From Minisyncoccota bacterium (GTDB lineage: Bacteria > Patescibacteriota > Minisyncoccia > Phycocordibacterales > UBA9973): 64,000 nt of DNA. Positions 5,901-37,883 of the stretch are shown here, in pieces. The number at the start of each line of letters is the position of its first letter. Within the stretch, counting starts at the first letter, position 1. The notes under the pieces were generated by a model, which did not search any database, was not told the DNA's origin, and worked only from the letters and a program-made list of their open reading frames with translations. The stretch spans positions 6,858 through 70,857 of the forward strand of contig JBAYKO010000003.1 in the NCBI GenBank assembly GCA_041664605.1, written 5' to 3'. The position numbers were made by a program, and so were the translations under genes.

Positions 5901-5978
5901 GAATATTTTTTTGTCGTCACAAAAAAATTTCTCGACCCCGGCTCGGCTTTTTGTCTACTGACAAAATATGCCTGTGCC

Positions 5979-7112: not shown

Positions 7113-7120
7113 ATAAGATA

Positions 7121-8262: not shown

Positions 8263-8299
8263 GGGGTTAGTAATTACCGTAATGGTAACCACTAACCCC
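8263..8299 (-). terminator. rho-independent terminator hairpin (GGGGTTAGT..ACTAACCCC) followed by a T-run on the minus strand
   Basis: 9-bp outer stem with an inner ttacc/ggtaa stem. Immediately downstream of the 8305-8538 ORF. Confidence 0.6.
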
Positions 8300-8304
8300 T
8301 TCTA

Positions 8305-8538: not shown

Positions 8539-8559
8539 AGATATGTAGTTGGTTGATAA

Positions 8560-9610: not shown

Positions 9611-9922
9611 CGATAAATAATAATGGGTTAATAATATAGCTCAGTGACTAGCTGAGCTGAAAGAGACAAGCTCTGCAGTTCTTATCTCTCAAAGAAATAG
9701 TTTTCTTGTGGCTGAGTGCGACTGATAGTTATAGTAGGTAGTAGTGACGGTGATTGTAATAGTAACTGCAATGTAATGGCTTCGGTAATAACAGAGGGTG
9801 GGGAGTGGTTTTAGGGTCCCATATAGGCGTCGGTAAGACACTGTGGGTATGGAAGGAAGCTGTCGCCGGAGCATTTGCCCAATATTCGGCCATTGGCGTG
9901 GTACTAATGTTAAGATTAATTC

Positions 9923-10567: not shown

Positions 10568-10650
10568 TATTTTTGGAGTGTTTTCTAGTTCAAGAATAGG
10601 TGGGCCTGAAAAAATTCAGCATAAATTTTTAGACTTTTCTGTTTACTAAA

Positions 10651-11676: not shown

Positions 11677-11677
11677 T

Positions 11678-14266
11678 TTATGTTATTAAATTTTTAACTT
11701 CTTGAATATCTTTTTTTAATTTTTCAATATTATCCGGCATGGCATGCTGTATCATTTCGTTTGATTGATCATGAGCATCTATATACCGACTAAATTCCTC
11801 GTGGAGTTCCTTTGCTTTTTCAAGCTTTGATTTGTTAAGGGTTGCTCTAGGTATATTACGCATCTGAATTTGCTCGGACCATCTTGTAACAACTTTCCCA
11901 AATATCTTTTCTTCCACGGCCTTTTCTATAGCTTTTCTTAAGTTACTGTAGGCGGTTCTAATACCATCTCTTTTACTCTCACCGCTTAAACTTGAAAGAG
12001 AAGTGAACATCCCATCAACCTTTTGAACTTGTGCATTAAAGTTAATAGATCCAGCATAATCATTTTCAGTTACTACACCAGCATCGATATCATTTTTCTC
12101 GACTTTATGAAAGGCTGCTTTTATACTATCTACTTCATGATTTTCCTTTTCAACTTGTTCGTGTAAATAGTTAGCAAACATCAAATCATGAGTGAAAACA
12201 ATGACTTGTCGTGATTCAGATTCCTTGACAATTCTTTTGGCGATTTTTTCTTTTCTGTCATGGTCAAAACTGGTAGCAGGATCGTCAAATATGACAGGGG
12301 TCTTTTCACCTTGCATTGCCAATTCAGCAAAAAAATCAGAGAGTGCAACTGCCTTTTGTTCTCCTTCGCTTAAAAACTGATTAATATGGTCCATCCCGCT
12401 TAAGCTTTTCTCTCTCATTTGCGAACCATATTCACCTCGAAAATTCAAGTTTACATTTGGTGCATCGAGACTTGCGACTTCAGTGTTGAATTGCCGTTTA
12501 AATGAATCTGACACTAATTCCTTCCATGCTTTCATCCCGAGCTCTGTTATAGGTCTGGTATTAAATTTAACCGCAAGAGAGCTTGCTTTTGCTATCCATT
12601 GATTAATTCCGATGTATTTTTCTACATGTCTTTTATATTTTGAAAATTTCTGAATATCTTTCATTTCAACCTCTGCCAGATTCAACTCTACTGAACGACG
12701 GTTAAAATTTCGCTGTGCTTCATTAAGCTGTTTTATATCGTTTTCAATTTTCGCTTTCACTAATCCAGTACTGGTTATAAGACCACTGATATTCAACGGT
12801 TTCAGTTTACCTGCTTTTTTCGTGTTCAAGCATCCAATAACCTGCTGGATTAAAGCATCCGCATTATCCATGGCGTCAAATGAAGAATGAGCTAGTTTTT
12901 TCGTAAGTATTTTTACGAAGTCGTTTTTTTTATATGGAAAATTATTACTAAATGAAATATCTTCCAAATTTGAAAGTGCTTCATCAAGCTCATTCTCTAT
13001 GTCCTCGAAATCATTTGACTCCTCTTCTTCGAAGAGCTTCCTGTAGAGTTGTATGAGTTTGGTCGCTGTCTTGCTAAGCTTTTGCTGACAATAGATACAA
13101 TTATCAGCCTCCTCGGGATAATTTTCATGATAGGCAATATCAGTATACGATTCTCCTGCTTCGATGAATTTTTCCCATTCATCCGATGCCATTTCCGGAA
13201 TTTTATAATCATCCAGTGTTTTTCCTTTCTTTTCCGTAAATTTCTTCTTGCTTATGTTGAATTTTTTTATCAATTGTAAATAAGTGCGAACACTCGCTGG
13301 CGAAGTCTCTGTTTTAATTTCTTCCAATTTTTCCTGCAGGGCAGTCACTTTCTGTAATCTTGTTTGTAGATTTTCAAATTGCAGGTCCATGTTTTGTAAG
13401 CTCTTGGACTCTTTGATGTTCGCTAACAGTGCTTCCTTGGCAGACTGACCCCACTGAGGAAGTTTATTTAAGTCTGCAACTTTTGTTGAAGGACCAATAC
13501 TATTAATAAATTTTCCTATTGTAGTTCCACTATTGAAAATACCTTCAAGTGGCGGTTTGTCGTCTTCTGCTTTCTGTATATGGTTTGTCATTCGCTGCTG
13601 TAAACCAGTCAATGCACGTGAAGCAGATTGGAATAATTCAAAACCATATGGTTGATAGGAAAAATCGAGTCCTTCGGTTAAGTAGATTGGAATACATTCT
13701 CCATCAAAAATACTCATTCGATTGAATGGGGTTAATGTATTATGGCCATCCCACATAACTGTTCGATCCGTACCATTATTAAACACAATCTTTACCTTAC
13801 ACTCATTCTTTTTTTTTGAGTTATTTATATTTTGCCAAATATCTTCCTGCGTTCTCGATGCACTGATTCTCTTCAAAATACGGACAAAGCCTGATTTACC
13901 ACTTCCATTTTTACCATAAATTACAGTGAGTCGTGAGTGGAATGATAGTGTTGCCCCTTTGACTAGTGCATTCACGCCATCCTCATGTACTAAATTCTTA
14001 AGTTCAAATCCATTGTTAGCAGTCAAAGGTCTAGCAATTACCGGAGTAGGGGTTTTAATGTCGGTACTTTTTTCTTTGGCATCACTCAGTCCGTGTGTAA
14101 TCAAAAAATCTTCGTATATTGTGTCTAAAAACGTATTGTCAGGAACGGCACGGATGGAAATGATCCGATCCAGTAACGGACTCATCCATTGTTCACGATC
14201 TTGAGCCCCAAATTCCTTTAGGTAGTCGTCAGCTTTAGTTTTTGGAATAGGAGTAACTTCTGACAT
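11678..14266 (-). CDS. large ABC-type ATPase with a coiled-coil insert and central CxxC zinc hook (RloC/Rad50-like), plus a ~160-aa C-terminal extension
   Basis: Walker A GKNGSGKSG (~aa 118). CIYC at ~aa 388, midway through the coiled coil. ABC signature LSEGEQ, Walker B VIFDDP and H-loop VIVFTHD at ~aa 640-700. C-terminal tail contains SRYIDAH (Rx4H). Confidence 0.8.
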   Translation of the reverse strand: MSEVTPIPKTKADDYLKEFGAQDREQWMSPLLDRIISIRAVPDNTFLDTIYEDFLITHGLSDAKEKSTDIKTPTPVIARPLTANNGFELKNLVHEDGVNALVKGATLSFHSRLTVIYGKNGSGKSGFVRILKRISASRTQEDIWQNINNSKKKNECKVKIVFNNGTDRTVMWDGHNTLTPFNRMSIFDGECIPIYLTEGLDFSYQPYGFELFQSASRALTGLQQRMTNHIQKAEDDKPPLEGIFNSGTTIGKFINSIGPSTKVADLNKLPQWGQSAKEALLANIKESKSLQNMDLQFENLQTRLQKVTALQEKLEEIKTETSPASVRTYLQLIKKFNISKKKFTEKKGKTLDDYKIPEMASDEWEKFIEAGESYTDIAYHENYPEEADNCIYCQQKLSKTATKLIQLYRKLFEEEESNDFEDIENELDEALSNLEDISFSNNFPYKKNDFVKILTKKLAHSSFDAMDNADALIQQVIGCLNTKKAGKLKPLNISGLITSTGLVKAKIENDIKQLNEAQRNFNRRSVELNLAEVEMKDIQKFSKYKRHVEKYIGINQWIAKASSLAVKFNTRPITELGMKAWKELVSDSFKRQFNTEVASLDAPNVNLNFRGEYGSQMREKSLSGMDHINQFLSEGEQKAVALSDFFAELAMQGEKTPVIFDDPATSFDHDRKEKIAKRIVKESESRQVIVFTHDLMFANYLHEQVEKENHEVDSIKAAFHKVEKNDIDAGVVTENDYAGSINFNAQVQKVDGMFTSLSSLSGESKRDGIRTAYSNLRKAIEKAVEEKIFGKVVTRWSEQIQMRNIPRATLNKSKLEKAKELHEEFSRYIDAHDQSNEMIQHAMPDNIEKLKKDIQEVKNLIT

Positions 14267-14356
14267 ATATTTTTATTCCTCCCAGAGCTTGGCTAAGGTG
14301 GCTTTAGTTTTCTGTTCGTAAATCTCGATCAGTTTTTTGTTGCCTATTTTCATATA

Positions 14357-15436
14357 TTATTTTATAAACCTTACCTGTAGGTTTAATTTCATAAAGTACC
14401 GTCCACCTTCTTTGAATACACTTATTGGATATCGAGTTGTACTCGGTGTATCAAGCTTGGTGTTATTTATTAAATAATCCCTAAAATCTTCTATATTGTA
14501 TAAATAATAACAAAGCACATCACCGTCTTTTTTTACCAACAAAAAACCACCCAAACTAGTAAGTATCCCATTCCATTCTTTATTAGGCATCATCCCTAAA
14601 GCCATCACGCTTAAAAATTCTTTTATTTTATGAATTGGTTGAATATTTTGCTTGTCGGCTATTGGAAAATTTATTTCCAATAAATCAGAAAAACTAGTCG
14701 CACCTCTGGAATAGAAAGATAATAGAATTTTTGCTATGTGCAACGCCAAATTACTATCAATCAACGACATATTGTTTTTAAATTTCTCACTATCAACATT
14801 ATGCAAAACTATGTTATATCCACTACTTATCAAGAGACCGACATTATCCTTCACATTTTTAGCGTGTAGCTTTGGTAATTTAATTGGTACCTTCATTTTT
14901 TCATCGAGAATTTCAAAAGTGAAGCTTGTCGCCTTTGATGAGTTAAGAAGCGTTGACGGACTGCCCAGTTGTGACTTTATACTAAAACCAATTTCAGGAC
15001 TTGGTTTTTTCGTCTTTACATCAAAAACCACTAAGTCTAAGTCTTTTTTATCAGAGCTAGATGCTTTAATAATTTCCTTCTGCAAAATTTGCATCATTTC
15101 TGACCCAACTTCTAATGGAAAAGATCGACCCTCATTTTTGACTGAGAGATTATTGAACATTCTATTTAAAATTGACTCGATTTTTTTTACTTTTACAGAG
15201 GCTACTTTATTTTTTCCAGAAAAAATATCAACGACTTCTTGACCTATTTCATATGTAACTTTTTCCTTTCCTGCTTTTTCAGAAAAAATTATTTTTAGTA
15301 CCTTGTAAAATAAATCTTCTCTACGATTTTGATATTTGTCTGCAGCGTATGCACCACCATTTACCAATAGAAAAGCTAGTGCGTACAACTCACTCCACTC
15401 CCCAGTATTGCCAGTTGTCTGTTTTTGATTAATCAT
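14357..15436 (-). CDS. putative type II restriction endonuclease cognate to the upstream m5C-MTase
   Basis: Start overlaps the MTase stop by 8 nt. No catalytic motif recognised, so the call is positional. Confidence 0.45.
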   Translation of the reverse strand: MINQKQTTGNTGEWSELYALAFLLVNGGAYAADKYQNRREDLFYKVLKIIFSEKAGKEKVTYEIGQEVVDIFSGKNKVASVKVKKIESILNRMFNNLSVKNEGRSFPLEVGSEMMQILQKEIIKASSSDKKDLDLVVFDVKTKKPSPEIGFSIKSQLGSPSTLLNSSKATSFTFEILDEKMKVPIKLPKLHAKNVKDNVGLLISSGYNIVLHNVDSEKFKNNMSLIDSNLALHIAKILLSFYSRGATSFSDLLEINFPIADKQNIQPIHKIKEFLSVMALGMMPNKEWNGILTSLGGFLLVKKDGDVLCYYLYNIEDFRDYLINNTKLDTPSTTRYPISVFKEGGRYFMKLNLQVRFIK

Positions 15437-16328
15437 AATGATTTTCTAACGCCTCAATTATTTTTTTTGCATAATCCTGTATTGCATAAATTGCCACACT
15501 GTTGCCTAACTGCTTCATGGCCTGGCTTTCTGTAACAGGAAATATAAAATCTTCAGGAAAGCCCTGCATTTTTTTCCCTTCTTTTGAAGTAATTCTTTTT
15601 ACTTTTCCGTTCACCAAATAGCTGTCCCAATTTCGTCTGTCGGTAATATTGGACCCCTTACCACCAACTCTAAGAGTAAAACCAACTTCTTTATTTACCT
15701 TTGCTCCATCAAAGACATCGGACATGGTAAATTTTAAAGGTCTTTTTTGTGGAAATTCAAAAGGTATTTTTTTGTTTTTAAAACCAATCATAAACAAACG
15801 GGGGCGGTTCTGTGGCAGGCCGTGCTCCGATGCTTTTACAATATTAAAATGAAGAGAATATCCCAAATCTTTAGTCAAAACATTACTAATTACTTCAAAT
15901 GTTTTTCCATTATCGTGAGCAAGTAAACCCCTGACATTTTCCAAAAAGAATGCTTTTGGTTTTTTTACACGAATAATTTCTGCAATGTTATAAAACAAGG
16001 TCCCACGTGTATCATTAAAACCTTTCTTGAAACCAGCCTGACTAAATGGCTGACACGGAAAGCCTCCAGTTAAAATATCAAAATTGGGTATTTTTTTTGG
16101 ATCGATTTTTGTAATATCTCCAACAAAATTTCCACTAGAAAATAATTCGGGGTCAATTTTTTCAAAATTTGTCTGGTATGTATTTCTTGCATGAGAATCC
16201 CATTCTGACGAAAAAACGCACTTGGCACCAACATTATTAAAAGCTATATGAAAACCTCCAATTCCTGCGAATAGATCAATAAATGTAAATTTTTTCTTTT
16301 TCATTTTAATATTTGCCATATATAACAA
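15429..16328 (-). CDS. DNA (cytosine-5)-methyltransferase
   Basis: Motif I DLFAGIGGF, motif IV GFPCQPFS, motif VI FLENVRGL, motif VIII QNRPRLF, motif X GNSVAI. Confidence 0.9.
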   Translation of the reverse strand: MLYMANIKMKKKKFTFIDLFAGIGGFHIAFNNVGAKCVFSSEWDSHARNTYQTNFEKIDPELFSSGNFVGDITKIDPKKIPNFDILTGGFPCQPFSQAGFKKGFNDTRGTLFYNIAEIIRVKKPKAFFLENVRGLLAHDNGKTFEVISNVLTKDLGYSLHFNIVKASEHGLPQNRPRLFMIGFKNKKIPFEFPQKRPLKFTMSDVFDGAKVNKEVGFTLRVGGKGSNITDRRNWDSYLVNGKVKRITSKEGKKMQGFPEDFIFPVTESQAMKQLGNSVAIYAIQDYAKKIIEALENHYD

Positions 16329-16366
16329 AAATATAGCATTTTAAGGCTTTAAAATCAATCTGATAC

Positions 16367-16397
16367 TTGACAGGAAAATGGATTTTTTTGATATAAT
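16367..16397 (+). promoter_or_regulatory. sigma70-like promoter with extended -10 (TTGACA-N19-TGaTATAAT)
   Basis: Lies 10 nt upstream of the 16407 ATG. The spacer is slightly long; the TG extended -10 compensates. Confidence 0.45.
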
Positions 16398-16406
16398 GAC
16401 TCGGTC

Positions 16407-17372
16407 ATGGACAGCATCAAAATACCAGATACGGGAGGACACGAAGGAACACAAAATCAGTGTTTTATTGTGCTTGATAAAAGTGGCAATGAACTTGTGG
16501 GGTGTATAAAAGAACTAACTTGGCTTTTTCAGCTTTTATTAAAAAAGGGAGACGGAGTTTATACGGATGGAGTCACAACGGCAGTCAAAGTAAGCACTCT
16601 CTTGGCGGGGCCTTTCTTCAAAGATAAAAACACAATACAAACAGATGTATGTACTCTAGTAATGCCAGTAATCGCAGATAAGGGCTTTCTTAGAAAATAT
16701 GACATGACAAAGTATCAGCCACACTACGAATACAATGGGGATTCTTTTGTTCAGGATGGCTCGGTCTTTTTTACTGACTTTACAGACGATTTTTTAATAG
16801 CATACATGGAAGACCGGCTTGGCATAAAAACTGGGCCTGGAATAAATGCTAATCAGAAAAGTAAAGTCATTTTACAGAAAACAAAGAAAAAGCGGTTACA
16901 GCTTCCGGACCTTCCGAACGATCTCAAGTGGGAAGAAATAACAATAAGGTTTCTAAATGGTGGTGAAGTACAAATCACGGCGAAAGGACTGGTTTATCAG
17001 GTAAGCCATGAACTAATGGGCTTTCAGGATGAAAAAACCAAGAAGCCTAACTTTCAGTGGAATTTGTTGAAACTACTTTCACTAAAGGGCGGTTACTTGA
17101 ATTGGAGTAACAACAGGGAGCTAGACATAAAAACAAGAGATCGGGTAAAAAAACAAAAACAGGGGCTGTCTGAGAGGTTAAAAGTATATTTTCATTCCGT
17201 TGAGGGCGACCCATTTTTTAACTACAGAACGGAAGATGGTTATAAAATCAGAATACAACTCATACCGGAACAAGGTAGCGATATTCAAGATACCATTGAA
17301 GCAATCAGTAATACCATGGATTATTACGACGAAGATAATGATGTAAACATCGGAGACTATTCCAAGGAATAA
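16407..17372 (+). CDS. hypothetical protein (321 aa), cargo gene
   Basis: Has its own promoter and terminator; no motif recognised. Confidence 0.5.
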   Translation: MDSIKIPDTGGHEGTQNQCFIVLDKSGNELVGCIKELTWLFQLLLKKGDGVYTDGVTTAVKVSTLLAGPFFKDKNTIQTDVCTLVMPVIADKGFLRKYDMTKYQPHYEYNGDSFVQDGSVFFTDFTDDFLIAYMEDRLGIKTGPGINANQKSKVILQKTKKKRLQLPDLPNDLKWEEITIRFLNGGEVQITAKGLVYQVSHELMGFQDEKTKKPNFQWNLLKLLSLKGGYLNWSNNRELDIKTRDRVKKQKQGLSERLKVYFHSVEGDPFFNYRTEDGYKIRIQLIPEQGSDIQDTIEAISNTMDYYDEDNDVNIGDYSKE

Positions 17373-17430
17373 GCACCGTTTTGAACGACCAGTGAATTCA
17401 CCCAAAACTAAATAAAAAGATATCGCTAAC

Positions 17431-17456
17431 GGCCCTTAATTTATAAGGGCTTTTTT
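17431..17456 (+). terminator. rho-independent terminator (GGCCCTTAAtttaTAAGGGC + TTTTTT)
   Basis: Hairpin followed by a T-run. Confidence 0.65.
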
Positions 17457-17553
17457 GCTGCCAATTTTTCACGGTGATTTTTCGCCACTAGTAAATATAG
17501 GACGGTCAGTCGAAACCAACACCTATATTTATTAACTAACATAAACAAATCGT

Positions 17554-17760
17554 ATGAAAGCAACGAAAGAAAAAGGAGGGTCTATGACGAAATCAAAAAA
17601 CATAGTGCCGTTGGAGGAGGCTAGAGAAACTTTTTTCAGAAGCATCAGAAATGCCATGAAGATATTCGAAATTTCTCTTTTGAAAAATCGTCTCGCAAGT
17701 TCAAAAAAAGGAAGAAATGTTGTTGATGCACTCATGGCTGATTGTTATAAGGAAAAATAA
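17554..17760 (+). CDS. hypothetical small basic protein (68 aa)
   Basis: ORF preceded by an inverted repeat AAATATAGG..CCTATATTT at ~17490-17530. Confidence 0.4.
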   Translation: MKATKEKGGSMTKSKNIVPLEEARETFFRSIRNAMKIFEISLLKNRLASSKKGRNVVDALMADCYKEK

Positions 17761-17918
17761 TGATTTCAGTGGATGATGCAAAAAGAATACTACAGGACGA
17801 CTCTATGTCCGACCAAGAAGTTGAGACAGCTATAAGCGACCTACAATTACTAGCAGAATTAATATTCGATCATTGGACCAATGAAAAGGCCAAAGAAAGA
17901 AAAAATTATAATAAGTAA
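17760..17918 (+). CDS. possible small ORF (52 aa), overlapping-stop coupled (TAATG)
   Basis: MISVDDAKRILQDD..; below the track cutoff. Confidence 0.3.
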   Translation: MISVDDAKRILQDDSMSDQEVETAISDLQLLAELIFDHWTNEKAKERKNYNK

Positions 17919-17944
17919 CGCTGTATATCAGCACAAAAAAATAT

Positions 17945-18313
17945 ATGAAAAATAATATTAAAGAATCTAAAAAAAATCTTATAAAAATGGTAAAAGGTGT
18001 GCAGATGGACCAAACAATTGATGCCGTGCAAGGACTAGTTAAGGCATATGGTTTTAAAATAGCAGCTTCATTAATAAGAATGACTTTAGAAGCTACATAT
18101 GAAGTTGATCAGAAGAATGTAAAAGAGGAAAAAAGTAAAAATAGGAAAGAAATGATAACGGTAGAATTTAAAGATGGTAAAAAAAATATATGTATCGCCT
18201 CAGAAAGACGCCCAGGAGAAACGAAGAATCAACACGAAGAAAGGATCGAATTAATGAAAAAAATGATGATAGACGCTTCTATATCTAATAAATATGGTGG
18301 CCTTTGTATCTAG
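17945..18313 (+). CDS. hypothetical protein (122 aa)
   Basis: ORF only; overlaps the start of the prim-pol gene. Confidence 0.4.
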   Translation: MKNNIKESKKNLIKMVKGVQMDQTIDAVQGLVKAYGFKIAASLIRMTLEATYEVDQKNVKEEKSKNRKEMITVEFKDGKKNICIASERRPGETKNQHEERIELMKKMMIDASISNKYGGLCI

Positions 18314-20141
18314 AAAATACATGGAAAATAATATTACAAATAAAAAACTGGAAGCGGCGTTAAGATATACAGCAATGGGATGGGTTATTGTGCCAGCGAT
18401 AGGAAAACATCCTTGTGTGAAATGGAAAAAATTCCAGAAAGTTAAGCCAACCCAGGATCAAATAAAAGAATTCTGGACAAAGTTTCCTAATGCTAAAATA
18501 GCAGTCATTACCGGTCCACTGTCGAGTATTGTGGTATTCGATATTGACACGAAACATAATCGTAGGCCGGAAGAATTTGATTTACCTGCCACAGTATCGT
18601 CACGGACGACTAACGGTGGTTGGCATTACTTCTTCAAGCATCCAGGATATAAAGTTAGAAATAGTAATGGGACACTGTTTGGGCCAGGAATTGATATTAA
18701 GGGAGATTCCGGAATTGCCATATTACCTTCGTCAGATACTGGTCCAGACAAGGCGTATACATGGGCTGTAGAGTCTACTGGTGACAACATGGCACCGATG
18801 CCGAAATGGCTGGAAGATAGAATCTCGAGTGCCCAGAGTACTCCCACCCTGCCCGCTATGATTACTAGCAACGAGGTTGTACTTACTAATAAAATTGGAG
18901 AATCAAGCCTGAATGAAATACCGGAAGGGACTCGCAATGACAAGCTTACAAAGTTAACAGGCACACTATTAGCCAAGTTTAAGCCTAATGAGTGGAATTC
19001 TCTGGTGTGGCCTATTGTTACTTCTTTTAACACAGCCAACTGTAAACCACCATTGCCACTATCCGAAGTAAAAAGTATATTTGATTCTATTTCTGGATCC
19101 GAGATGTCAAAACCATCTATGGTTAATACTGGACCGATTGAAATTCTGACAGCAAAGGAACTCAAAGAACTACCATTCACGGATCCTAAATGGGTTGTTG
19201 ACGGCTTGTTCGAAGCCGGCACGGTAAATATGATTGGAGCCGCTTATAGTAACTTCAAAAGTATGATCAGTATGCATGTGGCGGATTGCTTGATTACCGG
19301 CAAACCTGTATTCAACAAGTTCGAAGTTGTTAAGCAGTCTGTATGGGTAATTAATGAGGAAGATCCTAAACGCCATGTACAGGAAAGAATGAATATCATA
19401 AATAGCGACTGGGGTGAGTTACCAATTTACTTCTCGATCAAAAAAGGATTAAAGCTGAGCGATGATATCGTCGGACAGATTATCGTACGAAGTAAAGCAC
19501 TCGGCATAGGTTTTGTAATTTTTGACTCGTTGAGGAGTGTGCATGACAAGGAGGAAAACGCTTCAGGGGAAATGCAGGCTGTAATGGATTGGCTCGGCAA
19601 GATCGCAGATGCAGGTATAACTGTCCTATTCACACACCATAATCGAAAGAGAAGCGGTTTTGGTAAGGCAAACGAGGGTGAAGAAGCACGAGGTAGTAGC
19701 GTTATAACCAATGCATCACATAGCTATATATCATCTAATGCAAAGAAAGAAAATGGCATGGACTATGCGATTATCATGCAACATAAACAAAAATCGGCGA
19801 AAAAATTAGATCCGTTTCGAATACGCATCAACCTACTACCTGACTGCGACAACGATGAACGCTTTATTTATGAGGGTGAAGAAATAAATAACAGCCTAGT
19901 TGTGTTAAAAGCAAAAATTATAGGAGCACTGGAATCATCCGAGAAATGGCTATTTATGAATGATTTCACAGCATTGAAGTTCGGTGGTAAAAAAACCATT
20001 AAAAAGGCCTTAGACGAATTAGTGTTGGAAGAAAGAATTGAATGTAAATTAGGTGAAGAAATTATTAGGGAGGAATTAGATGCATCAATTGCTGTGCCTC
20101 GCCCCAATGCCAAATTTTATTTTTTGGCCAATGAGGAATAG
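18294..20141 (+). CDS. mobile-element replication protein: bifunctional primase-polymerase (Prim-Pol) N-domain + RecA-like / AAA_25-type NTPase C-domain
   Basis: Prim-Pol motifs VVFDIDTKH and GGWHYFF. C-terminal domain shows a RepA/DnaB-like pattern (VIFDSLRSV.., LFTHHNRK). The Walker A appears degenerate (IGAAYSNFKS). Confidence 0.75.
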   Translation: MVAFVSRKYMENNITNKKLEAALRYTAMGWVIVPAIGKHPCVKWKKFQKVKPTQDQIKEFWTKFPNAKIAVITGPLSSIVVFDIDTKHNRRPEEFDLPATVSSRTTNGGWHYFFKHPGYKVRNSNGTLFGPGIDIKGDSGIAILPSSDTGPDKAYTWAVESTGDNMAPMPKWLEDRISSAQSTPTLPAMITSNEVVLTNKIGESSLNEIPEGTRNDKLTKLTGTLLAKFKPNEWNSLVWPIVTSFNTANCKPPLPLSEVKSIFDSISGSEMSKPSMVNTGPIEILTAKELKELPFTDPKWVVDGLFEAGTVNMIGAAYSNFKSMISMHVADCLITGKPVFNKFEVVKQSVWVINEEDPKRHVQERMNIINSDWGELPIYFSIKKGLKLSDDIVGQIIVRSKALGIGFVIFDSLRSVHDKEENASGEMQAVMDWLGKIADAGITVLFTHHNRKRSGFGKANEGEEARGSSVITNASHSYISSNAKKENGMDYAIIMQHKQKSAKKLDPFRIRINLLPDCDNDERFIYEGEEINNSLVVLKAKIIGALESSEKWLFMNDFTALKFGGKKTIKKALDELVLEERIECKLGEEIIREELDASIAVPRPNAKFYFLANEE

Positions 20142-20173
20142 GAGAGTAAAAAAACAACATCTTCTGCTTACAT

Positions 20174-20242
20174 GCTTGGTATTCTCTATAATAGAATACC
20201 AAGCACTAAGCAAAATGCGAGAAGATAGCTTGCTTGGTATTC
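20174..20242. promoter_or_regulatory. three copies of GCTTGGTATTC (an inverted pair forming a 12-bp hairpin with loop CTATAAT, plus a third direct copy) upstream of the recombinase gene
   Basis: Hairpin at 20174-20204 and third copy at 20232-20242. Candidate operator / promoter region or terminator of the prim-pol gene. Confidence 0.4.
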
Positions 20243-20258
20243 CTGTGTTTGACTAGGC

Positions 20259-21902
20259 ATGCAAAGCAATGTATTAACAGTAGTAAAAATTAAATTAAGT
20301 TGTATTATGAAAAATATGAAGACTGGAATTATATATACAAGAGTAAGTTCAGACGAACAGATCAAAGGTACCTCCCTCGGTGAACAGGAGGAATTTTGTC
20401 GTAAATATTGTGCCGAAAAGGATATAACCATAGTGCGTGAGGTATTCCGTGAAGAAGGAGCTTCTGCCAAGAGTACCGATCGGGCAGTGTTTTTGAGTGC
20501 TATTGAATACTGTCGAAAAAACAAGGTAGACTTTTTTGTCGTTTGGAAGTGTGATCGCTTTGCCAGAAATTCAACCGACCATTACGCAGTCAAAAGCACC
20601 TTATTAAAATACGGCACCCGGCTTGACTCTGTAACAGAGCAGATCGGAGACGATCCAACTGGTAAACTAATGGAGGGTATGATGGCTATTATTGGCGAAT
20701 TTGATAACGATATACGAAAACAGCGTTGCAGTGGCGGAATGCTTGGCAGACTGAAACAAGGAATATGGCCATGGAAACCACCTATTGGTTATATCTGTGA
20801 AAATAACAAAAAGCAGGACAGGAAGAAAGAACAGCCGGACCCGATTAACCCGGTTATATTTCCTATCATTCAGCGTGGCTTAAAAGAATTCGTGGCTGGA
20901 CAATACACCATGACGCAATTAGCAGAAGCATATAATCGCTATGGGCTTGTTGCTCCAAATGGTAAAAAAATAAACGCAAAATTAGTAGACAGATTGTTTA
21001 CACATCATCTGGCCTATTATGCTGGTATATTGAATAATCCATTTTTCCCCAAGAACGGCGAAGCTTCATATGAGGGTAAGCATACTCCCATGATCACCAA
21101 GGAAGAATACAGGGCGATCTTAATGATCCGAGCAGGTAAAAGGGTGCAGACAATGAAACGGAGTCGCCACAACCCAATATTTCCCCTCAAAGGTAGCGTA
21201 TTTTGCTCTAAATGCGACAAGAGGCTAACTGGAAGCTGTTCCCGTGGGAATGGCGGGGTTTATGCCTTCTACCACTGCTATAACGTCTCATGTGACCTCC
21301 GTGGCAAGACAGTCCAAAAGAAAATCATTGAAGACGCCTTTATTAAATTTCTGGAGTCTGTTACTCCTAATGAAAAGTTTTTAAAACTGTTCGAGGAGAT
21401 AGTCATACAGCACTGGACCAACAAAGGCCATGTATTCGAAGTACAGACTAATAAATATGCAAAAGAGATAGCCGAATTGAATCAAAAGAAAAAGAGGATC
21501 TATGAAATGAGAGAGGACGGCGAATACACCAAGGAACAATGCACAGATAGATTGAACGAAATAGAAGACAAAATAGTCGCATTGGATATTTCTTTAAACG
21601 AGGCAAAAATAGAGCAGTTTGATGTTGAAGCTACAGTGAAATATGCAGTAAGGACCATTACTGATTTACCAAAACTTTGGTTTGATCTTGCACCGGAATT
21701 ACGCCCACGGTTCCAAAAGATGGTATTTCCCGAGGGAGTTCTCTATTCCAAAGAAGAAAGTTTTCGAACCAACAAATTGGCTTATATCTACGAGCTAAAA
21801 AAGAAAAAAGGAGCTCAAAGAACTCCTTTTTTCAACATAGTGGACCCTAGCGGATTCGAACCGCTGACCTCCTCATTGCAAATGAGGCGCTCTACCAGCT
21901 AA
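20259..21902 (+). CDS. large serine recombinase (integrase)
   Basis: Resolvase catalytic region GIIYTRVSSDEQ. Recombinase domain and Cys-rich zinc-ribbon (CSKCDKR..CSRGNGGVYAFYHC). Spacing of the catalytic Ser suggests the true start is nearer 20307 (MKNMKTGIIY). The 3' end overlaps tRNA-Ala. Confidence 0.85.
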   Translation: MQSNVLTVVKIKLSCIMKNMKTGIIYTRVSSDEQIKGTSLGEQEEFCRKYCAEKDITIVREVFREEGASAKSTDRAVFLSAIEYCRKNKVDFFVVWKCDRFARNSTDHYAVKSTLLKYGTRLDSVTEQIGDDPTGKLMEGMMAIIGEFDNDIRKQRCSGGMLGRLKQGIWPWKPPIGYICENNKKQDRKKEQPDPINPVIFPIIQRGLKEFVAGQYTMTQLAEAYNRYGLVAPNGKKINAKLVDRLFTHHLAYYAGILNNPFFPKNGEASYEGKHTPMITKEEYRAILMIRAGKRVQTMKRSRHNPIFPLKGSVFCSKCDKRLTGSCSRGNGGVYAFYHCYNVSCDLRGKTVQKKIIEDAFIKFLESVTPNEKFLKLFEEIVIQHWTNKGHVFEVQTNKYAKEIAELNQKKKRIYEMREDGEYTKEQCTDRLNEIEDKIVALDISLNEAKIEQFDVEATVKYAVRTITDLPKLWFDLAPELRPRFQKMVFPEGVLYSKEESFRTNKLAYIYELKKKKGAQRTPFFNIVDPSGFEPLTSSLQMRRSTS

Positions 21903-21913
21903 GCTAAGGGCCC
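21841..21913 (-). tRNA. tRNA-Ala (anticodon UGC)
   Basis: Manual cloverleaf fold. Acceptor GGGCCCT/AGGGTCC with the Ala G3:U70 pair. Anticodon stem CCTCA/TGAGG with loop TTTGCAA. T-loop TTCGAAT. Length 73 nt with no encoded CCA. Confidence 0.9.
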
Positions 21914-23107: not shown

Positions 23108-24442
23108 TTAAAATAAAGATTTTCTTCGTAAATTTCGGTGGTACGATATAGCGAAACGATGAGATTCACTGTTCACTAAAAGAATTTCTCTTTCTCTTTT
23201 AAAAACAAGACTCTTTTTGTCTAAAACTTCACTTCGTGAAGTTCGGCCGATCAATCCGCCTTTGGTGGATTGATTTAGGCCTAAAATATCTTTAGGTCTG
23301 TGACGTTCATCTTTAACCACAGAAACAACATCAATATCAAAACCTCTTTCTTTTAAAACTCTTTCAACTGCATTTTTTTGGGCTATTCCACCATCAACAA
23401 CAATCAAATTTGGGAGTGTCCATTCAAAATGCCCCAACCTCCTTAAAATGATTTCTTTAAGGCTTCCAGTATCATCCGGTCCCTTTATAGTTCTTATTTT
23501 AAATTTTCTATATTCATTTTTATCTACTTCTCCATTTAGAACCACTGTCATAACCCCTACCATATTATTCCCGCCCATATGAGCAATATCATATCCTTCA
23601 ATTCTAAAATTATTTTCTGTCTCTTCTTTTAAATTCTCCTCTTTTAAAAGCGATATATCTTGAATATGTTTTAAAGCAAAAATTTTTCTTTTTAATTCTC
23701 CAGCTTTTTCAAACTTTTGTAACTTAGCCAAAGATTTCATTTCTTTTTCAAGATTTTTCAAGATTTGTATTTTTTTGCCTTCAAAAAATAATTTAATATT
23801 TCGTATAGTCTTTTTATATTCTATTTTTATCTGACTACTTTTCATATCAGGAGTAAGACCTAGCTGTCTATAAAATTCATAATTATTTTTTGAATTAGAA
23901 TTTTTATCTATAAACGGAAAAATTCTACGAATAATTTTTAAAGCTTCTCGTAAAGAAGTTCCTGAAGTATATGACCCGTAGACAGATTGATATATTGAAT
24001 TTTTAAGGTCAGACCTTTTTAAATTCCCAAGGTCCGACCTTTTCCCGTCAATCAATTCCCTTCCGCGAATAACTAAAATTCTAGGGAAACCTGCTCCGCC
24101 AAGGCGGGGTGAATCTTTTGTTATACAGACATAATTAAAACTTTTATCGTCTTTTTCTTTGGTATTATATTTTGGCTTATATTTTTTTATTAAATTAGCT
24201 TCTAAAATTAAAGCCTCAAGTACTGAATCGGTTGTTTGCCATTTAATATCTTTTGACTTAAAAACCATGTCTAAAATAGTTGGACCCCTTGTTTCAATTA
24301 AGTCACTTGAAAAATAACTTTTTACACGATCCTTCAGAGATGTGGCTTTGCCAATGTATAGAATTTCCTTTTTTGATCCAAGGAAAAAATACACTCCGGG
24401 AGTGTCGGGAATCTTATGATTTTTTAAATCTTGACTAATCAT
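23108..24442 (-). CDS. uvrC: excinuclease ABC subunit C (short form: GIY-YIG + UvrB-interaction + RNaseH-like endonuclease domains, no HhH tail)
   Basis: GIY-YIG motif PGVYFF..ILYIGKATSLKDRVKSYF. Carries an in-frame GC-rich repeat insertion encoding GKRSDLGNLKRSDL. Confidence 0.85.
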   Translation of the reverse strand: MISQDLKNHKIPDTPGVYFFLGSKKEILYIGKATSLKDRVKSYFSSDLIETRGPTILDMVFKSKDIKWQTTDSVLEALILEANLIKKYKPKYNTKEKDDKSFNYVCITKDSPRLGGAGFPRILVIRGRELIDGKRSDLGNLKRSDLKNSIYQSVYGSYTSGTSLREALKIIRRIFPFIDKNSNSKNNYEFYRQLGLTPDMKSSQIKIEYKKTIRNIKLFFEGKKIQILKNLEKEMKSLAKLQKFEKAGELKRKIFALKHIQDISLLKEENLKEETENNFRIEGYDIAHMGGNNMVGVMTVVLNGEVDKNEYRKFKIRTIKGPDDTGSLKEIILRRLGHFEWTLPNLIVVDGGIAQKNAVERVLKERGFDIDVVSVVKDERHRPKDILGLNQSTKGGLIGRTSRSEVLDKKSLVFKREREILLVNSESHRFAISYHRNLRRKSLF

Positions 24443-27750: not shown

Positions 27751-28122
27751 ATGATTACATTACAAGAAACTGCCTTTATGATTGACCTTATTAATAGGTC
27801 GTATCACAGAAGAATGTCGCATTTTTATTTTTTAATCAAGCTTATAATTATTTCTTTTTTTGTCTGTGCCTTTTTATATCCAGAAACATCAAGTCTTATA
27901 AACGCGCCGATAAATTCATGGATTTTTTTATCGTCTGGTGTGATATGTGCCTTGTCTTGTCTTTTAATGCTTAGCATATATGCAAGCAAAGAATATCAGC
28001 CGTGGAATATCAAAAAACAACAAATGGCCGCATTAGAAAAAACCTCTGAAAAACAAAAAGAAAATGGGTTTGAAGATCTAAAAAACTGTGAACCTCTTAA
28101 AGAATACTTTAAAATGTCTTAA
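27751..28122 (+). CDS. small membrane protein (123 aa); paralog of the 36130-36516 gene
   Basis: Shares YHRRMSHFYFL..TM..TM..FEDLKNCEPLKEYF with the 36130 gene (YRRRMMSFYFF..FEDLKDSENLKEYF). Confidence 0.5.
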   Translation: MITLQETAFMIDLINRSYHRRMSHFYFLIKLIIISFFVCAFLYPETSSLINAPINSWIFLSSGVICALSCLLMLSIYASKEYQPWNIKKQQMAALEKTSEKQKENGFEDLKNCEPLKEYFKMS

Positions 28123-28583: not shown

Positions 28584-30737
28584 TTATTTTTTATTTTTAT
28601 TTGAAAATTTATCTTTCAATATTAGAATTTCATCCCTTAATATCGCAGCTGTCTCAAAATCTAATTCTTTAACAACTTTATTCATTTCTTTTTCTTTCAT
28701 CTTGATTATTTTTTCATAAATTAAATCATTCCATTCAGCATCAGATAAAAGAGACTTGGTTTTAGTCTTTTCTTTTTTTAAAGTTTTTCTAAATAATTCT
28801 ATATCGAGCCCTAGTTCTGTTTTTATCGCTTTGTCATGTTTATCTTCTAGTTCTTCGGTAATATCGTGAATATTTTTAATAATAGTTTTTGGGGTAATTT
28901 TATGTTTTTTATTATAAGCAATTTGTATTTCTCTTCTTCTGTTTGTTTCTGAAATTGCTCGCTCCATTGATCCGGTAATATGATCAGCATACAGAATTAC
29001 TCTACCTAATACATTTCTGGCAGCACGGCCAATAGTCTGGATCAAAGAAACTTCAGATCTTAAAAATCCTTCTTTATCAGCATCTAAAATTCCAATAAAA
29101 GAAACTTCTGGTAAATCCAAGCCCTCCCTTAACAGGTTAACTCCAACCAAACAATCAAACTCCCCTCTTCTGAAACTAGTTAAGATTTTTATTCTATCTA
29201 TGGTTTTTACATCGCTGTGTAAATATTCTGATTTTATATTTTGTTCTTTAAGATAAATACTTAAATCTTCCGCCATTTTTTTGGTCAAAGTTGTTGCAAG
29301 CACTCTACCGCCATTTTTAATTTCTTTTAAGGTTTCCTTTATAAAATCTTGCACTTGTCCGGGGTATGGGCTCCTCAAGGTCTTACCTTTCCCGTCGCTT
29401 CGCTCCTCCTCAAGGAAAGACCTTTTCCCGCCCGCAGAAACTGGTCTTACTTCAAGTTCTGGATCAATAAGCCCAGTTGGTCTAATTATTTGCTCAACTA
29501 CTTGATCACTTTTTTCTCTTTCAAATAAAGAAGGGGTGGCTGTTGTATAAACAACCTGCCCAACCCTTTCTTCAAATTCAGAAAATTTTAAAGGGCGATT
29601 GTCTTTTGCTGATGGCAACCTAAAACCAAATTCTACTAATGTCTTTTTTCTTGAAGCATCACCTGCATACATCCCTTGAAGCTGGGGCAAAGTAACATGA
29701 GATTCATCTATAATAGTAAGAAAATCAGCTTCGCCATTTACTTTATGTGGAAAATATGAAAGCAAAGTTTCTGGTGGTTCTCCGGCTTTTTTGCCGGATA
29801 AATGTCTTGAGTAATTTTCAATTCCACTACAATATCCCATTTCTTTTATCATCGCCAAATCATAGTTGGTTCTTCTTTTTAATCTTTCAGCCTCAAGAAG
29901 TTTTCCTTCTTTTTCAAATTTTTTTAATTGTTCAGATAATTCTTTTTTAATTACCTTAACCGCCATGTCCCTCTCAGCTTTATTAGTCATAAAATGCTTT
30001 GCCGGAAACAAAGACACATTTTCTAAAGTTTCTAATATTTCAGATGTTACTGGGTCAATTTTAAAAATTTTATCTATTAAATTATTTTCAATTGAAATAC
30101 TTATTATATAGGTTTCGGAAATTGGCATTATTTCAATTTTATTTCCTATTACCCTAAACTGCCCTGAAGACAAGTCGGCATTTGTTCTTTCAAAATGTAG
30201 ATTAATTAAACGCTTCAAAAAATCATTTCTGGAAATTTTATCCCCTCTTTTAAATTGAATATTTTCTTCTTTATATTGTTCTGGAGATCCAAGACCATAA
30301 ATGCAAGAAACAGAAGCGACAATAATCACATCATTTCTTGAAAGAAGTGATTGAGTAGAAGCATGGCGAAGTCTATCTATTTCTTTATTTATTTGTGCAT
30401 CCTTTTCAATGTAAGTGTCTGTGATTGGTAAATATGCTTCTGGTTGATAATAATCATAATAAGATACAAAATAGTGCACGGCATTTTCTGGAAAAAATTG
30501 CTTATATTCTTGAGCAAGCTGAGCGGCTAGAGTTTTATTGTGAGCGATAACTAAAGTTGGTTTTTGTAGTTTTTCTATAACATTTGCCATGGTAAAAGTT
30601 TTTCCCGAACCCGTAACACCAAGAAGAGTTTGTTTTTTAAACCCTTTTTTAATTCCTTTATTTAAATCCTCTATTGCCTTCGGCTGGTCGCCCGCCGGAG
30701 AATATGGACTCTTTAATTTGAATTTATTTTGAGACAT
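28584..30737 (-). CDS. uvrB: excinuclease ABC subunit B
   Basis: LLGVTGSGKTFTMANVI, YFVSYYDYYQPEAY, helicase motifs and C-terminal UVR domain. Contains a ~25-aa in-frame insertion (SAGGKRSFLEEERSDGKGKTLRSPYPG) between conserved VRP and QV(Q/D)D. Confidence 0.95.
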   Translation of the reverse strand: MSQNKFKLKSPYSPAGDQPKAIEDLNKGIKKGFKKQTLLGVTGSGKTFTMANVIEKLQKPTLVIAHNKTLAAQLAQEYKQFFPENAVHYFVSYYDYYQPEAYLPITDTYIEKDAQINKEIDRLRHASTQSLLSRNDVIIVASVSCIYGLGSPEQYKEENIQFKRGDKISRNDFLKRLINLHFERTNADLSSGQFRVIGNKIEIMPISETYIISISIENNLIDKIFKIDPVTSEILETLENVSLFPAKHFMTNKAERDMAVKVIKKELSEQLKKFEKEGKLLEAERLKRRTNYDLAMIKEMGYCSGIENYSRHLSGKKAGEPPETLLSYFPHKVNGEADFLTIIDESHVTLPQLQGMYAGDASRKKTLVEFGFRLPSAKDNRPLKFSEFEERVGQVVYTTATPSLFEREKSDQVVEQIIRPTGLIDPELEVRPVSAGGKRSFLEEERSDGKGKTLRSPYPGQVQDFIKETLKEIKNGGRVLATTLTKKMAEDLSIYLKEQNIKSEYLHSDVKTIDRIKILTSFRRGEFDCLVGVNLLREGLDLPEVSFIGILDADKEGFLRSEVSLIQTIGRAARNVLGRVILYADHITGSMERAISETNRRREIQIAYNKKHKITPKTIIKNIHDITEELEDKHDKAIKTELGLDIELFRKTLKKEKTKTKSLLSDAEWNDLIYEKIIKMKEKEMNKVVKELDFETAAILRDEILILKDKFSNKNKK

Positions 30738-30739: not shown

Positions 30740-30859
30740 TTAGAAAATTATATTACCACTTCTCGCCCCGTAGTCAAAAATTTGTGTGTTTAGACAAATT
30801 TTTGTACTTCTGGGGTCGCCCGCTGGAGAATAAGGACTCTTTAATTCAAACTTATTCAT
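30740..30859 (-). other. 39-codon upstream ORF duplicating the first ~15 codons of uvrB, interrupted by a palindromic element
   Basis: MNKFELKSPYSPAGDP.. versus uvrB MSQNKFKLKSPYSPAGDQP; about 85% nucleotide identity over ~45 nt. The stop lies 2 nt before the uvrB ATG. Confidence 0.4.
30763..30828. repeat. palindromic element of the CCCCGTAGT-core family (CGCCCCGTAGTCAAAAATTTGT..ACAAATTTTTGTACTTCTGGGGTCG)
   Basis: The arms are imperfect reverse complements. Related to the outer arms of the 35086-35169 element. Confidence 0.45.
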
Positions 30860-36129: not shown

Positions 36130-36516
36130 TTGTTTTTAAAATTAACTAAATCTGAAATTATGATAACAGCAGTTGAAGAGGCTTTTATGAAAAGCCTTAT
36201 TATGAAAAATTATCGTCGGAGAATGATGAGTTTTTATTTTTTTCTCATTATCATTGTTGTTTCTTTTTTAATGATCGTTATTTTTTGGCCTGAATCAAAA
36301 ATGACTATAACAGCGACAAGTTGGATCTTTATTTGCTCTGTTGTAACGTTCGTCTTGTCATCAATAATTTTTATTGCTGTATATTTTGACGAGGATGAAA
36401 ATTGCCCATGGATTATAGAAAATAAACAAATTACTACCCTTAGGGGAGTTATTGGAGAAAAGGGTAAATTTGAAGATCTAAAAGATTCTGAAAATTTGAA
36501 AGAATATTTTGTTTAG
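36130..36516 (+). CDS. small membrane protein (128 aa), paralog of the 27751-28122 gene
   Basis: Shared N-terminal basic motif, 2 TM helices and C-terminal FEDLK..ENLKEYF. Confidence 0.5.
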   Translation: MFLKLTKSEIMITAVEEAFMKSLIMKNYRRRMMSFYFFLIIIVVSFLMIVIFWPESKMTITATSWIFICSVVTFVLSSIIFIAVYFDEDENCPWIIENKQITTLRGVIGEKGKFEDLKDSENLKEYFV

Positions 36517-36567: not shown

Positions 36568-36614
36568 CTTTTTATTTCTCATTATTTAAAAATTTTTTAC
36601 AAGGAACGACCTTT

Positions 36615-37883
36615 TTAAAGATTTAAGGTCGCACCTTTCAAAAAATTTAATAGCTCATCAACAGAAACTATTTTTGATTTTTCTTCATTTCTCTTTTTTA
36701 TTTCCACTCCTCCTGATTCAAGACTTTTTTTACTTATTATTATTCTATATGGTATTCCTATCAAATCTGCATCAGCAAATTTTTCACCCGCACTCAATTC
36801 TTTTCTATCATCATACAAAACTTCTATATTTTTTTCTTGTAAATTAGCGTAAATCTTTTCAGCTTCTTCTTTAATTTTCTCGTCTTCCCCTAAAGAAAGC
36901 AGATGAATCTTAAACGGAGCAACTGATTCTGGCCAAATAATTCCTTTGTCGTCTGACAAAGTTTCCACAATTGTTCCCATTAATCTTCCAAGTCCAATTC
37001 CATAACTACCCATAACCACTAATTTTTCTTCTCCATTTTCATCTTTATATTTCAAATCAAAAGGAGCTGAAAATTTCGTTCCAAGTGAGAAAATATTTCC
37101 AACTTCTATGGCTCTTTTTTCAATTAAAGATTCCTTGTTTAATCCGAGTTCTTTAATTGTTTCGTCATTATAAACTTCTTTATTTATAGCAATTCCTTTT
37201 TTCTCATCTAAATAAATACTATCTTCGCCCACATCTGATAGAGTCTGAAATTCATGAGAAAATTTAGAAAAACTTCCTCCCGAAGCAAAAGTTATATAAG
37301 TTAACCCACCAATACCCGTTCTTTTAAAAATATTTTTATAAGCAATTTTTGATTTTTCATAAAAATCATTATGTTCTTCTTCATCTTTTGAAAAAGAATA
37401 AAGTGCTTTCCAATAAAATTCTCTGCCTCTTAGAATTCCAGACTTGGTTCTTGTTTCATTTCTAAATATCTCTTTAAAATCATAAGGATAAACTGGTAAA
37501 TCTTTATACGAGCTTATGTACTGTTTTAATATATTTGAATAAGCTTCTTCGTTTGTAAAAGATAGGCCAACTTCGCCACCGTTTTTTAATTTTGTTTTAA
37601 ACCAAGTATCTACAACTTCATCATCCCACCTATTTGATTTTTCCCATATTTCTTTGTTTTGAAGAACAGTGGTCTTCATTTCAGTTCCTCCAATTTTATT
37701 CATCTCCTCACGGATAATATTTTCAATTTTTTTTATAACCATCAAACCCATAGGCAAAAAGGAGTAAACCCCCGCCATTTCTTTGTGAATAAAACCACCT
37801 CTAATCAAAAGTTCTGCATTTTTAGAAACCTCGTCTGCTGGGCTTTCTTTTTTGGTTTTAGTAAAAAGTTGTGATTGTTTCAT
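36615..37883 (-). CDS. proS: prolyl-tRNA synthetase (short form without editing domain)
   Basis: Class II aaRS; N-terminus SKNAELLIRGGFIHKEMAGVYSFLPMG; C-terminal anticodon-binding and Zn-like domain. Confidence 0.8.
   Translation of the reverse strand: MKQSQLFTKTKKESPADEVSKNAELLIRGGFIHKEMAGVYSFLPMGLMVIKKIENIIREEMNKIGGTEMKTTVLQNKEIWEKSNRWDDEVVDTWFKTKLKNGGEVGLSFTNEEAYSNILKQYISSYKDLPVYPYDFKEIFRNETRTKSGILRGREFYWKALYSFSKDEEEHNDFYEKSKIAYKNIFKRTGIGGLTYITFASGGSFSKFSHEFQTLSDVGEDSIYLDEKKGIAINKEVYNDETIKELGLNKESLIEKRAIEVGNIFSLGTKFSAPFDLKYKDENGEEKLVVMGSYGIGLGRLMGTIVETLSDDKGIIWPESVAPFKIHLLSLGEDEKIKEEAEKIYANLQEKNIEVLYDDRKELSAGEKFADADLIGIPYRIIISKKSLESGGVEIKKRNEEKSKIVSVDELLNFLKGATLNL

Follow-up and report, generated by a model that had tools for sequence, protein, structure and literature searches.

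A dispersed palindromic doublet repeat lies within uvrB and uvrC and over the stop codon of proS in a Minisyncoccota genome

We examined a 64,000-nt stretch (hereafter the window) of contig JBAYKO010000003.1 from a Minisyncoccota bacterium (assembly GCA_041664605.1) and characterised a short palindromic doublet element that it carries in three copies, all on the minus strand, as are their host genes: one inside uvrB, one inside uvrC and one at the 3′ end of proS. The uvrB gene (28584–30737), delimited by its open reading frame (ORF) and translation of 717 aa, contains the Pfam domains ResIII, UvrB_inter, Helicase_C and UvrB, and its product matches the solved UvrB structure 9gy7_E with E = 1.5e-231. 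The uvrC gene (23108–24442; 444 aa) contains GIY-YIG and UvrC_RNaseH_dom, and proS (36615–37883; 422 aa), with tRNA-synt_2b and HGTP_anticodon, encodes prolyl-tRNA synthetase. Both uvrB and uvrC are still full-length open frames with conserved motifs, and the in-frame inserts that they carry appear to be tolerated with function kept.

The UvrB translation around the insert reads ..ELEVRP-VSAGGKRSFLEEERSDGKGKTLRSPYPG-QVQDF, and the in-frame insert itself (29370–29426, 57 nt) supplies 19 codons, K438–S456 (KRSFLEEERSDGKGKTLRS). Its GC content of 0.53–0.59 compares with 0.32 for the whole uvrB gene and ~31% for the window. Arm 1 (AAAGGTCTTTCCTT, 29412–29425) pairs with arm 2 (AAAGGTAAGACCTT, 29377–29390) via AAGGTCTT/AAGACCTT and CCTT/AAGG, with CGGGA and GAGGAG repeated in direct orientation around each of the two units. 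The full extent recognised by covariance model R1, which was trained on 29 copies with the uvrB copy held out, is 29367–29435 (36.9 bits, E = 1e-7); this span covers the outer pairs GGGC/GCCC as well as the flanking CGGGA (5′) and GAGGAG (3′). At the 5′ end of the same gene, ~43 nt (30686–30728) are duplicated 128 nt upstream in intergenic DNA (30814–30856) with 88% identity.

The UvrC translation reads ..RGRELIDGKRSDLGNLKRSDLKNSIY... at its insert, where 48 nt (24005–24052) encode 16 in-frame codons, I131–L146 (IDGKRSDLGNLKRSDL). The arms occupy 24029–24042 and 24005–24018 with an 11-nt loop between them, and R1 matches 23995–24052 with 65.9 bits. A second GC-rich (0.76) insert of seven codons, PRLGGAG (24089–24109, minus strand), also lies in uvrC; it contains the inverted repeat CCGCC-TT-GGCGG, is missing from all eight orthologues compared and has no R1 match.

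The third copy (36591–36648; R1 61.9 bits) overlaps the 3′ end of proS, its arms at 36625–36638 and 36601–36614 forming a pair that spans 36601–36638. It supplies the final six codons (GATLNL, 36618–36635) together with the stop codon, sits between convergent genes, and is read in a frame different from the one that the uvrB and uvrC copies share (GKRS..). Two paralogous ORFs for small membrane proteins (27751–28122 and 36130–36516, plus strand; 123 and 128 aa), with a common 3′ end 81% identical, also lie in this region: one adjoins uvrB, and the other converges on proS just past the third copy. Because mreB comes directly after proS in relatives, the ORFs between these two genes look inserted.

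The repeat is far more frequent than chance would produce. The motif AAAGGTNNNNCCTT has six matches in the window, all on the minus strand and arranged as three pairs, against 0.28 expected, a count that 0 of 100 shuffles reached. The paired-arm pattern matches three times (0.00 expected from shuffles), and AGGTNNNACCT five times (0.84 expected). The 12-mer CGGGAAAAGGTC occurs exactly at 24036–24047 and 29419–29430 on the minus strand and at no other site in the window; allowing up to one mismatch, these two matches compare with 0.20 expected. The R1 search of the window returned exactly three loci, those in uvrB, uvrC and proS. The initial annotation had drawn attention to the extra peptides of UvrB and UvrC, to the GC-rich, two-unit make-up of the uvrB segment and to the identical 12-mer in the two genes, and on each of these points, including the translations, our analysis agrees with it. 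Its count of two loci fell short by the copy at the proS stop codon, and its description of every unit as a small palindrome suits the family often but the uvrB arms only in part. Searched at gathering thresholds, the whole window matched no Rfam family, and the uvrB insert searched at E up to 10 gave only chance-level hits.

Comparison with orthologues indicates that the segments are additions. Among 120 UvrB homologues, 68–74% identical to the window's protein (which NCBI lists under the organism name Candidatus Paceibacterota bacterium), the linker between ..RP and QVQDF has a Paceibacterota baseline of 9 residues (e.g., VSAGGEYPG), compared with 3 in non-CPR bacteria (CPR, candidate phyla radiation). 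Because of this baseline, the window UvrB has 19 extra residues, K438–S456, rather than the ~25 initially proposed. The search against solved structures breaks at the insert, with query residues 2–434 aligning to 1–428 and 457–710 to 426–658 of 9gy7_E. An AlphaFold model places residues 437–455 in coil with predicted local distance difference test values below 50, between a strand (427–431) and a helix (461–474), so that the insert is predicted to be disordered. From known UvrB structures, we take the insertion point to be the junction between the two helicase (RecA-like) motor domains.

The uvrC and proS copies are likewise extra. The shortest uvrC orthologues, at loci L009, L006 and L018, are without the 16 residues IDGKRSDLGNLKRSDL, and the length of this site varies among orthologues. 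The possibility that the outer stem of the uvrC copy is an inverted copy of upstream codons was unsupported, the residues KNSIY being ancestral. Orthologous prolyl-tRNA synthetases stop 3–5 residues past ..LLK, and we therefore consider that the element has replaced the proS tail and stop codon.

The UvrB site has a wider history of length change. About half of the UvrB homologues carry 10–59 extra residues at exactly this codon position, belonging to several unrelated sequence families, and in a neighbour-joining tree of limited resolution, proteins with inserts of different families are interleaved with insert-free homologues. Given this interleaving, and within the resolution of that tree, a single ancient insertion is unlikely. 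The closest UvrB homologue with a similar insert is P0005. In the syntenic relative L211 (P0013), the uvrB insert is a near-perfect hairpin with arms CATAGGTCSGACCTATG (z = −8.8), and in L015 it is a nested hairpin (z = −5.6) with a 55-nt core that recurs 1.3 kb away. The inserts of L006 and L008 form moderate hairpins, that of L008 having a left arm that is the reverse complement of the neighbouring conserved GYGGQV codons; L009 is marginal. The AT-rich, low-complexity inserts of L010 and L013 form no hairpin, which, with the marginal L009, rules out that all UvrB inserts are hairpins. Because the relatives' inserts are mixed in this way, the UvrB site can be described as generally permissive, repeatedly taken by hairpin elements but not by them alone. 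As judged from sequences and models, the sites in both genes are permissive, the UvrB insert being predicted as disordered at a domain junction and the uvrC site being variable in length.

Across the family, the arm is a 13-nt motif, AAGGT-N3-ACCTT, often itself palindromic, and the doublet folds as one hairpin. The two arms lie 8–22 nt apart in doublets of 34–49 nt, and the gap lengths are non-uniform, with peaks at 8 and 10 nt and with 8–14 and 21 nt present; the 21-nt class is nearly identical in sequence to the uvrB copy. In the window, the uvrC and proS copies form a 13-bp stem with an 11-nt loop (RNA fold z = −5.3 and −6.1, respectively), and the uvrB copy forms an 8+4-bp stem with a 22-nt loop (z = −2.3 as RNA). 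No T-run follows the hairpins.

Flanking positions are also patterned. The flanked form of the element reads CGGGA-AAAGGTCNGACCTT-...-GAGGAG; these flanks are frequent and are not inverted repeats of one another, the doublet is closed by a variable outer stem, and a subclass of copies carries CGGGA with either GAGGAG or AAAGAG. In the 10/11-nt gap class, the arm centres covary (CAG/CTG, CCG/CGG, TCA/TGA, TAA/TTA and TCG/CGA). Over the ten bases on each side, which were not used in selecting copies, 68% of cells pair against 41% in shuffled data, a level reached in 0 of 500 shuffles, and the figure falls to 30–46% when the partner is slid by 1–3 columns. The arms are free of stop codons in every frame unless the central base creates TGA, and the peptides KRSDL, KG.TL and KVRPF follow from this.

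To place the element in a wider context, we scanned a metagenome collection with the paired pattern, which returned at least 120 contigs, many from groundwater and lakes. Coding context was counted for 54 unique copies among the matches listed. Of these, 29 lie in long open frames, compared with 62% of segments drawn at random from these contigs, so the element enters genes at close to the random rate. Fifteen intragenic copies are sense and 14 antisense to the frame, and L177, counted among the 29, in fact lies shortly before a start codon. The hosts include PheT, IleS, SMC, DnaG, GatB, UvrC (L180, L142), Fpg, TGT, Fmt, IscS, YchF, RNase H, RsmE, FtsK, membrane proteins and a UvrD-like helicase with two to three copies, and the arms translate as KRSDL, KG.TL or KVRPF in copies of either orientation. 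The motif of uvrB and uvrC recurs at a third locus in the window and in numerous further genomes; its copies occupy genes as well as intergenic DNA, point either way and use more than one reading frame. Copies that survive within genes are in frame, contain no stop and are presumably translated into short loops at permissive sites.

The uvrB copy is identical at 49 of 50 nt (98%) to two copies that lie at different sites within the uvrC gene of L180. The window and L180 UvrC proteins, by comparison, are 43% identical, and the alignable part of their DNA ~64%; conservation of the element far exceeds that of its host genes. Because the proS copy uses a different frame from the uvrB and uvrC copies and includes a stop codon, and metagenome copies occur in sense and antisense, the element is a DNA-level entity and not a peptide motif. 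Contig pairs share a copy at the same protein site in DnaG, GatB, Fpg and YchF, from which we conclude that the element persists vertically. R1 detected further copies in metagenome contigs, up to four within 2–4 kb, and none in 266 kb around the uvrB genes of 20 related species; the element is confined to certain lineages. Collectively, these data define a dispersed, structured, DNA-level repeat family that is multi-copy across many CPR-like genomes. In a lake lineage (L159, L160, L123, L100), the AAGGTC doublet lies inside a further hairpin, CATGGAC...GTCCATG, and then TTTTCTAGA...TCTAGAAAA, an arrangement that suggests nested palindromic families.

Five Y1_Tnp (IS200-like) genes occur among the ~120 contigs listed, which had been chosen by the element pattern alone. 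The Y1 protein scores 26.7 bits against Pfam Y1_Tnp (cut-off 23), and its best NCBIfam match is the REP-associated tyrosine transposase (RAYT; REP, repetitive extragenic palindromic) at 31.9 bits, under the cut-off of 80. A doublet lies ~40 nt upstream of the Y1 start codon in L177 and L188, and 44 nt downstream of the Y1 stop codon in L194. Furthermore, L209 and L210, which encode the nearest homologues of the L177 protein on usable contigs and were fetched by protein similarity alone, have AGGT-N3-ACCT close upstream of the Y1 gene (214 nt away in L210, inside the called ORF in L209) and also in frame within it; L209 has a downstream copy too, and all four AGGT-N3-ACCT in its 12 kb fall within 341 nt of the Y1 gene. 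We also observed that the in-frame AGGT-N3-ACCT occupies one conserved position in the Y1 genes of L177 (540–580), L209 and L210, with the peptides NNRGRTSVV, SQGATL and IGATY. An arm of the L211 uvrB insert, CATAGGTCGGACCTATG, is one base off CATAGGTCGCACCTATG, the palindrome that precedes the L210 Y1 gene by 214 nt.

A second Y1 subfamily (217–225 aa; L187, L206–L208), widespread in Paceibacterota, is flanked by a different hairpin, TCAACSTGSCASGTTGA. This hairpin lies ~35–50 nt upstream of the Y1 start and, at every one of the four loci except L208, again over the last codons; its sites are 699–715 and 1377–1393 in L187 and near 9950 and 10630 in L206, L207 and L208, and L207 has a third copy 2 kb downstream. 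No AGGT-N3-ACCT occurs in the 62 kb of these loci. Since the second subfamily keeps TCAACSTGSCASGTTGA and has no AGGT-N3-ACCT in those 62 kb, each Y1 subfamily has its own hairpin.

We consider it probable that the uvrB, uvrC and proS copies belong to one dispersed family of mobile doublets resembling REPINs (paired REP sequences), tolerated in frame in the manner of Rickettsia palindromic elements (RPEs). Copies would spread by transposition as single-stranded hairpins. The presence of AGGT-N3-ACCT around one Y1 subfamily in related contigs leads us to propose as the enzyme an IS200-like Y1 (RAYT-like) protein, encoded by a single-copy gene and working in trans. Selection would then purge insertions that break the frame or the fold. 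With near-zero intergenic space, only in-frame copies in tolerant loops and copies at gene ends would remain, and the proS copy may double as a terminator-like hairpin.

Several observations weigh against this interpretation. We infer the mobilising enzyme from other contigs because no Y1 gene lies within the 84 kb of the source contig that was examined, and the Y1 association consists of five short or single loci. R1 finds no further copy in those 84 kb (loci L202–L205, reaching ~10 kb past each window end), and a density of 3 copies per 84 kb is far under that of classical REPINs. Neither a target-site duplication nor a defined cleavage site was recognised around the copies, the empty sites of relatives being too diverged to compare. 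The complementary outer stems vary from copy to copy, unlike a cut-and-paste element with fixed ends, and need an additional explanation, which could be template switching, selection acting on structure, or insertion at sites already palindromic. As DNA, the uvrB copy shows no folding advantage over shuffled sequence (z = −0.07), and because of this value, we regard it as weak and possibly a decaying relic. Translation of the inserts is an assumption. No presence/absence polymorphism was seen between strains; the second assembly (ENA ERZ27249449) is uninformative in this respect because its UvrB and UvrC are identical to ours.

The covariation of outer stems and arm centres, which keeps the structure, also bears on a different reading, namely that the hairpins are retained for a cellular role (translation pausing at a domain boundary, stabilising or terminating transcripts, or binding protein) and that mobility is secondary. 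The position of the proS copy between convergent genes is that of a terminator, the uvrB inserts of L211 (z = −8.8) and L015 (z = −5.6) are strong hairpins at the same domain junction, and orthologous same-site copies persist in the DnaG, GatB, Fpg and YchF contig pairs. However, the hosts are unrelated, and the copies have no common position, take either orientation and enter genes at about chance frequency. The window's own uvrB hairpin is weak, neither a T-run nor an Rfam match accompanies the copies, and many close relatives are without any insert. On balance, we judge such a retained role unlikely, if clearly less so than the readings considered below.

A local origin, in which slippage or template switching (an inverted copying of adjacent sequence) produced the segments as variable linkers and no transposable family exists, would suit the general tolerance of the UvrB linker for indels and the AT-rich, hairpin-free inserts of L010 and L013. 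The L008 left arm, complementary to the adjacent GYGGQV codons, fits it as well, as does the length-variable uvrC site, and complementary outer stems are compatible with hairpin extension by template switching. It fails, however, on the 49 of 50 bases that are identical between different genes where the UvrC proteins are 43% identical, and again on the 12-mer and flanks common to uvrB and uvrC and on the dozens of family members whose arms and spacing agree even though their host genes are unrelated. We therefore consider local origin very improbable, and for the window's three copies, the sequence comparisons suggest that it is largely refuted.

Two of the three window copies lie in uvrB and uvrC, and copies elsewhere occur in UvrC, Fpg, a UvrD-like helicase, DnaG and SMC, a distribution that recalls sequences for DNA uptake or protein recognition enriched in genome-maintenance genes, such as the Neisseria DNA uptake sequence and the Haemophilus uptake signal sequence. 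Uptake sequences do occur as inverted pairs and within repair genes, but the density here (3 per 84 kb) is far too low, and many hosts are tRNA synthetases and membrane proteins. Moreover, because the arm centres vary yet stay complementary, it is structure that is conserved and not a fixed word, and on density and variable centres together, we rejected this idea, to which we give even less credence than to local origin. Least credible of all is a functional K-R-S-D-L peptide motif gained by UvrB and UvrC, which we rejected because, while those two copies share a frame (GKRS..), the proS copy uses a different one and metagenome copies vary in frame and orientation; the disorder predicted for the UvrB insert is a further argument against it. 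None of these alternatives explains the 49-of-50-nt identity between uvrB and L180 together with the different reading frames.

The window also contains further features apart from the doublet family. Positions 4200–21900 have higher GC (0.36–0.42) and opposite strand skew and look like an integrated mobile/defence island. This region holds a large serine recombinase (20259–21902, plus strand) abutting tRNA-Ala (21840–21913, minus strand), a Prim-Pol/PriCT_1/AAA_25 gene (18294–20141, plus strand), an HpaII-type restriction enzyme (14357–15436, minus strand) with a C5 methylase (15429–16328, minus strand), and an AAA_13/SMC-like gene (11678–14266, minus strand). At the related P0005 locus, a serine recombinase likewise lies directly after ddl. 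Two 33-nt GC-rich hairpins (4514–4546 and 5806–5838; AAGGGGGGCGGAGGC..GCCTCCGCCCCC), 97% mutually complementary, flank a Fic-domain gene (4586–5650), and a 57-nt direct repeat (5840–5896 / 5972–6028) follows the second of them. Positions 1–5650 bring together a type I restriction-modification system (HsdM at 1367–3316, the specificity subunit lying past the window start), LexA (3317–3952, minus strand) and the Fic gene, and the second assembly ERZ27249449 has the same HsdM/LexA/Fic gene set.

In-frame palindromic elements are textbook knowledge for Rickettsia alone. Our findings describe a REPIN-like family inside essential genes of a second group with reduced genomes, unrelated to Rickettsia, and suggest that, where intergenic space is near nil, such elements survive by being translatable, with a Y1/RAYT-like protein as candidate enzyme for the in-frame behaviour. 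Part of the length variation of CPR housekeeping proteins would thereby be explained, and the inserted segments can distort alignments, phylogenies and metagenome assemblies. A search of the literature, incomplete in coverage, found no description of palindromic, in-frame, MITE (miniature inverted-repeat transposable element) or RAYT elements in CPR/Patescibacteria. As a tentative extension, which we hold with distinctly less confidence than the assignment of the three window copies, CPR/Paceibacterota may host a REPIN-RAYT-like system in which doublets enter coding DNA near-randomly, a domesticated Y1 is a standing source of disordered in-frame loops for essential proteins, and the UvrB hinge is hit repeatedly by different hairpin families. 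If true, it would provide the long-sought type of enzyme for RPE-like in-frame elements.

Among known systems, the GC clusters and double-hairpin elements of fungal mitochondria are GC-rich hairpins in an AT-rich compact genome, sometimes in frame; they share the doublet-hairpin anatomy, whereas they are organellar and unrelated in sequence. The ends of IS200/IS605 elements and of the miniature palindrome-associated transposable elements (PATEs) derived from them have sub-terminal hairpins that a Y1 HUH transposase recognises as single-stranded DNA, and the second Y1 subfamily (L187, L206–L208), with the same hairpin on both sides, resembles such left and right ends. The window elements, by contrast, are gene-less, and we identified in them neither left/right-end asymmetry nor a target tetranucleotide.

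A REPIN is a REP doublet tied to RAYTs (Bertels and Rainey, PMC3116915, PMC3337134). Here, too, there are two short imperfect palindromes with a spacer that is variable in length and unconserved except for the hairpin, dispersed within a genome, and the linked IS200-like HUH/Y1 genes, on other contigs, are flanked by palindromes. REPs are extragenic by definition, whereas about half of the copies here are intragenic and in frame (29/54); in the window, uvrB and uvrC each enclose an in-frame copy, and the proS copy runs over a stop codon. Arms of 13 nt in doublets of 34–49 nt differ from the Pseudomonas forms with 71–110 nt spacing, the flanks are CGGGA/GAGGAG rather than GTAG, the copy number in the genome is low, the Y1 protein falls under the NCBIfam RAYT cut-off, and the hosts are CPR/Paceibacterota.

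RPEs were reportedly set out by Ogata et al. in 2000. They are palindromic selfish repeats of a reduced, AT-rich genome that lie in frame in essential genes with function kept and also in non-coding DNA; they add surface peptide segments, as the present repeats presumably do. RPEs have since been reviewed (PMC10969869). The initial annotation had likened the uvrB and uvrC segments to these in-frame palindromic repeats that add peptide loops, and the likeness holds for behaviour; RPEs, however, measure ~100–150 nt, occur in Rickettsia only and have no known transposase, in contrast to the 48–57-nt doublets and candidate Y1 enzyme described here, which makes this a resemblance and not family membership. 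The nearest known system is thus REPIN-RAYT by anatomy and gene association, and the RPEs by behaviour.

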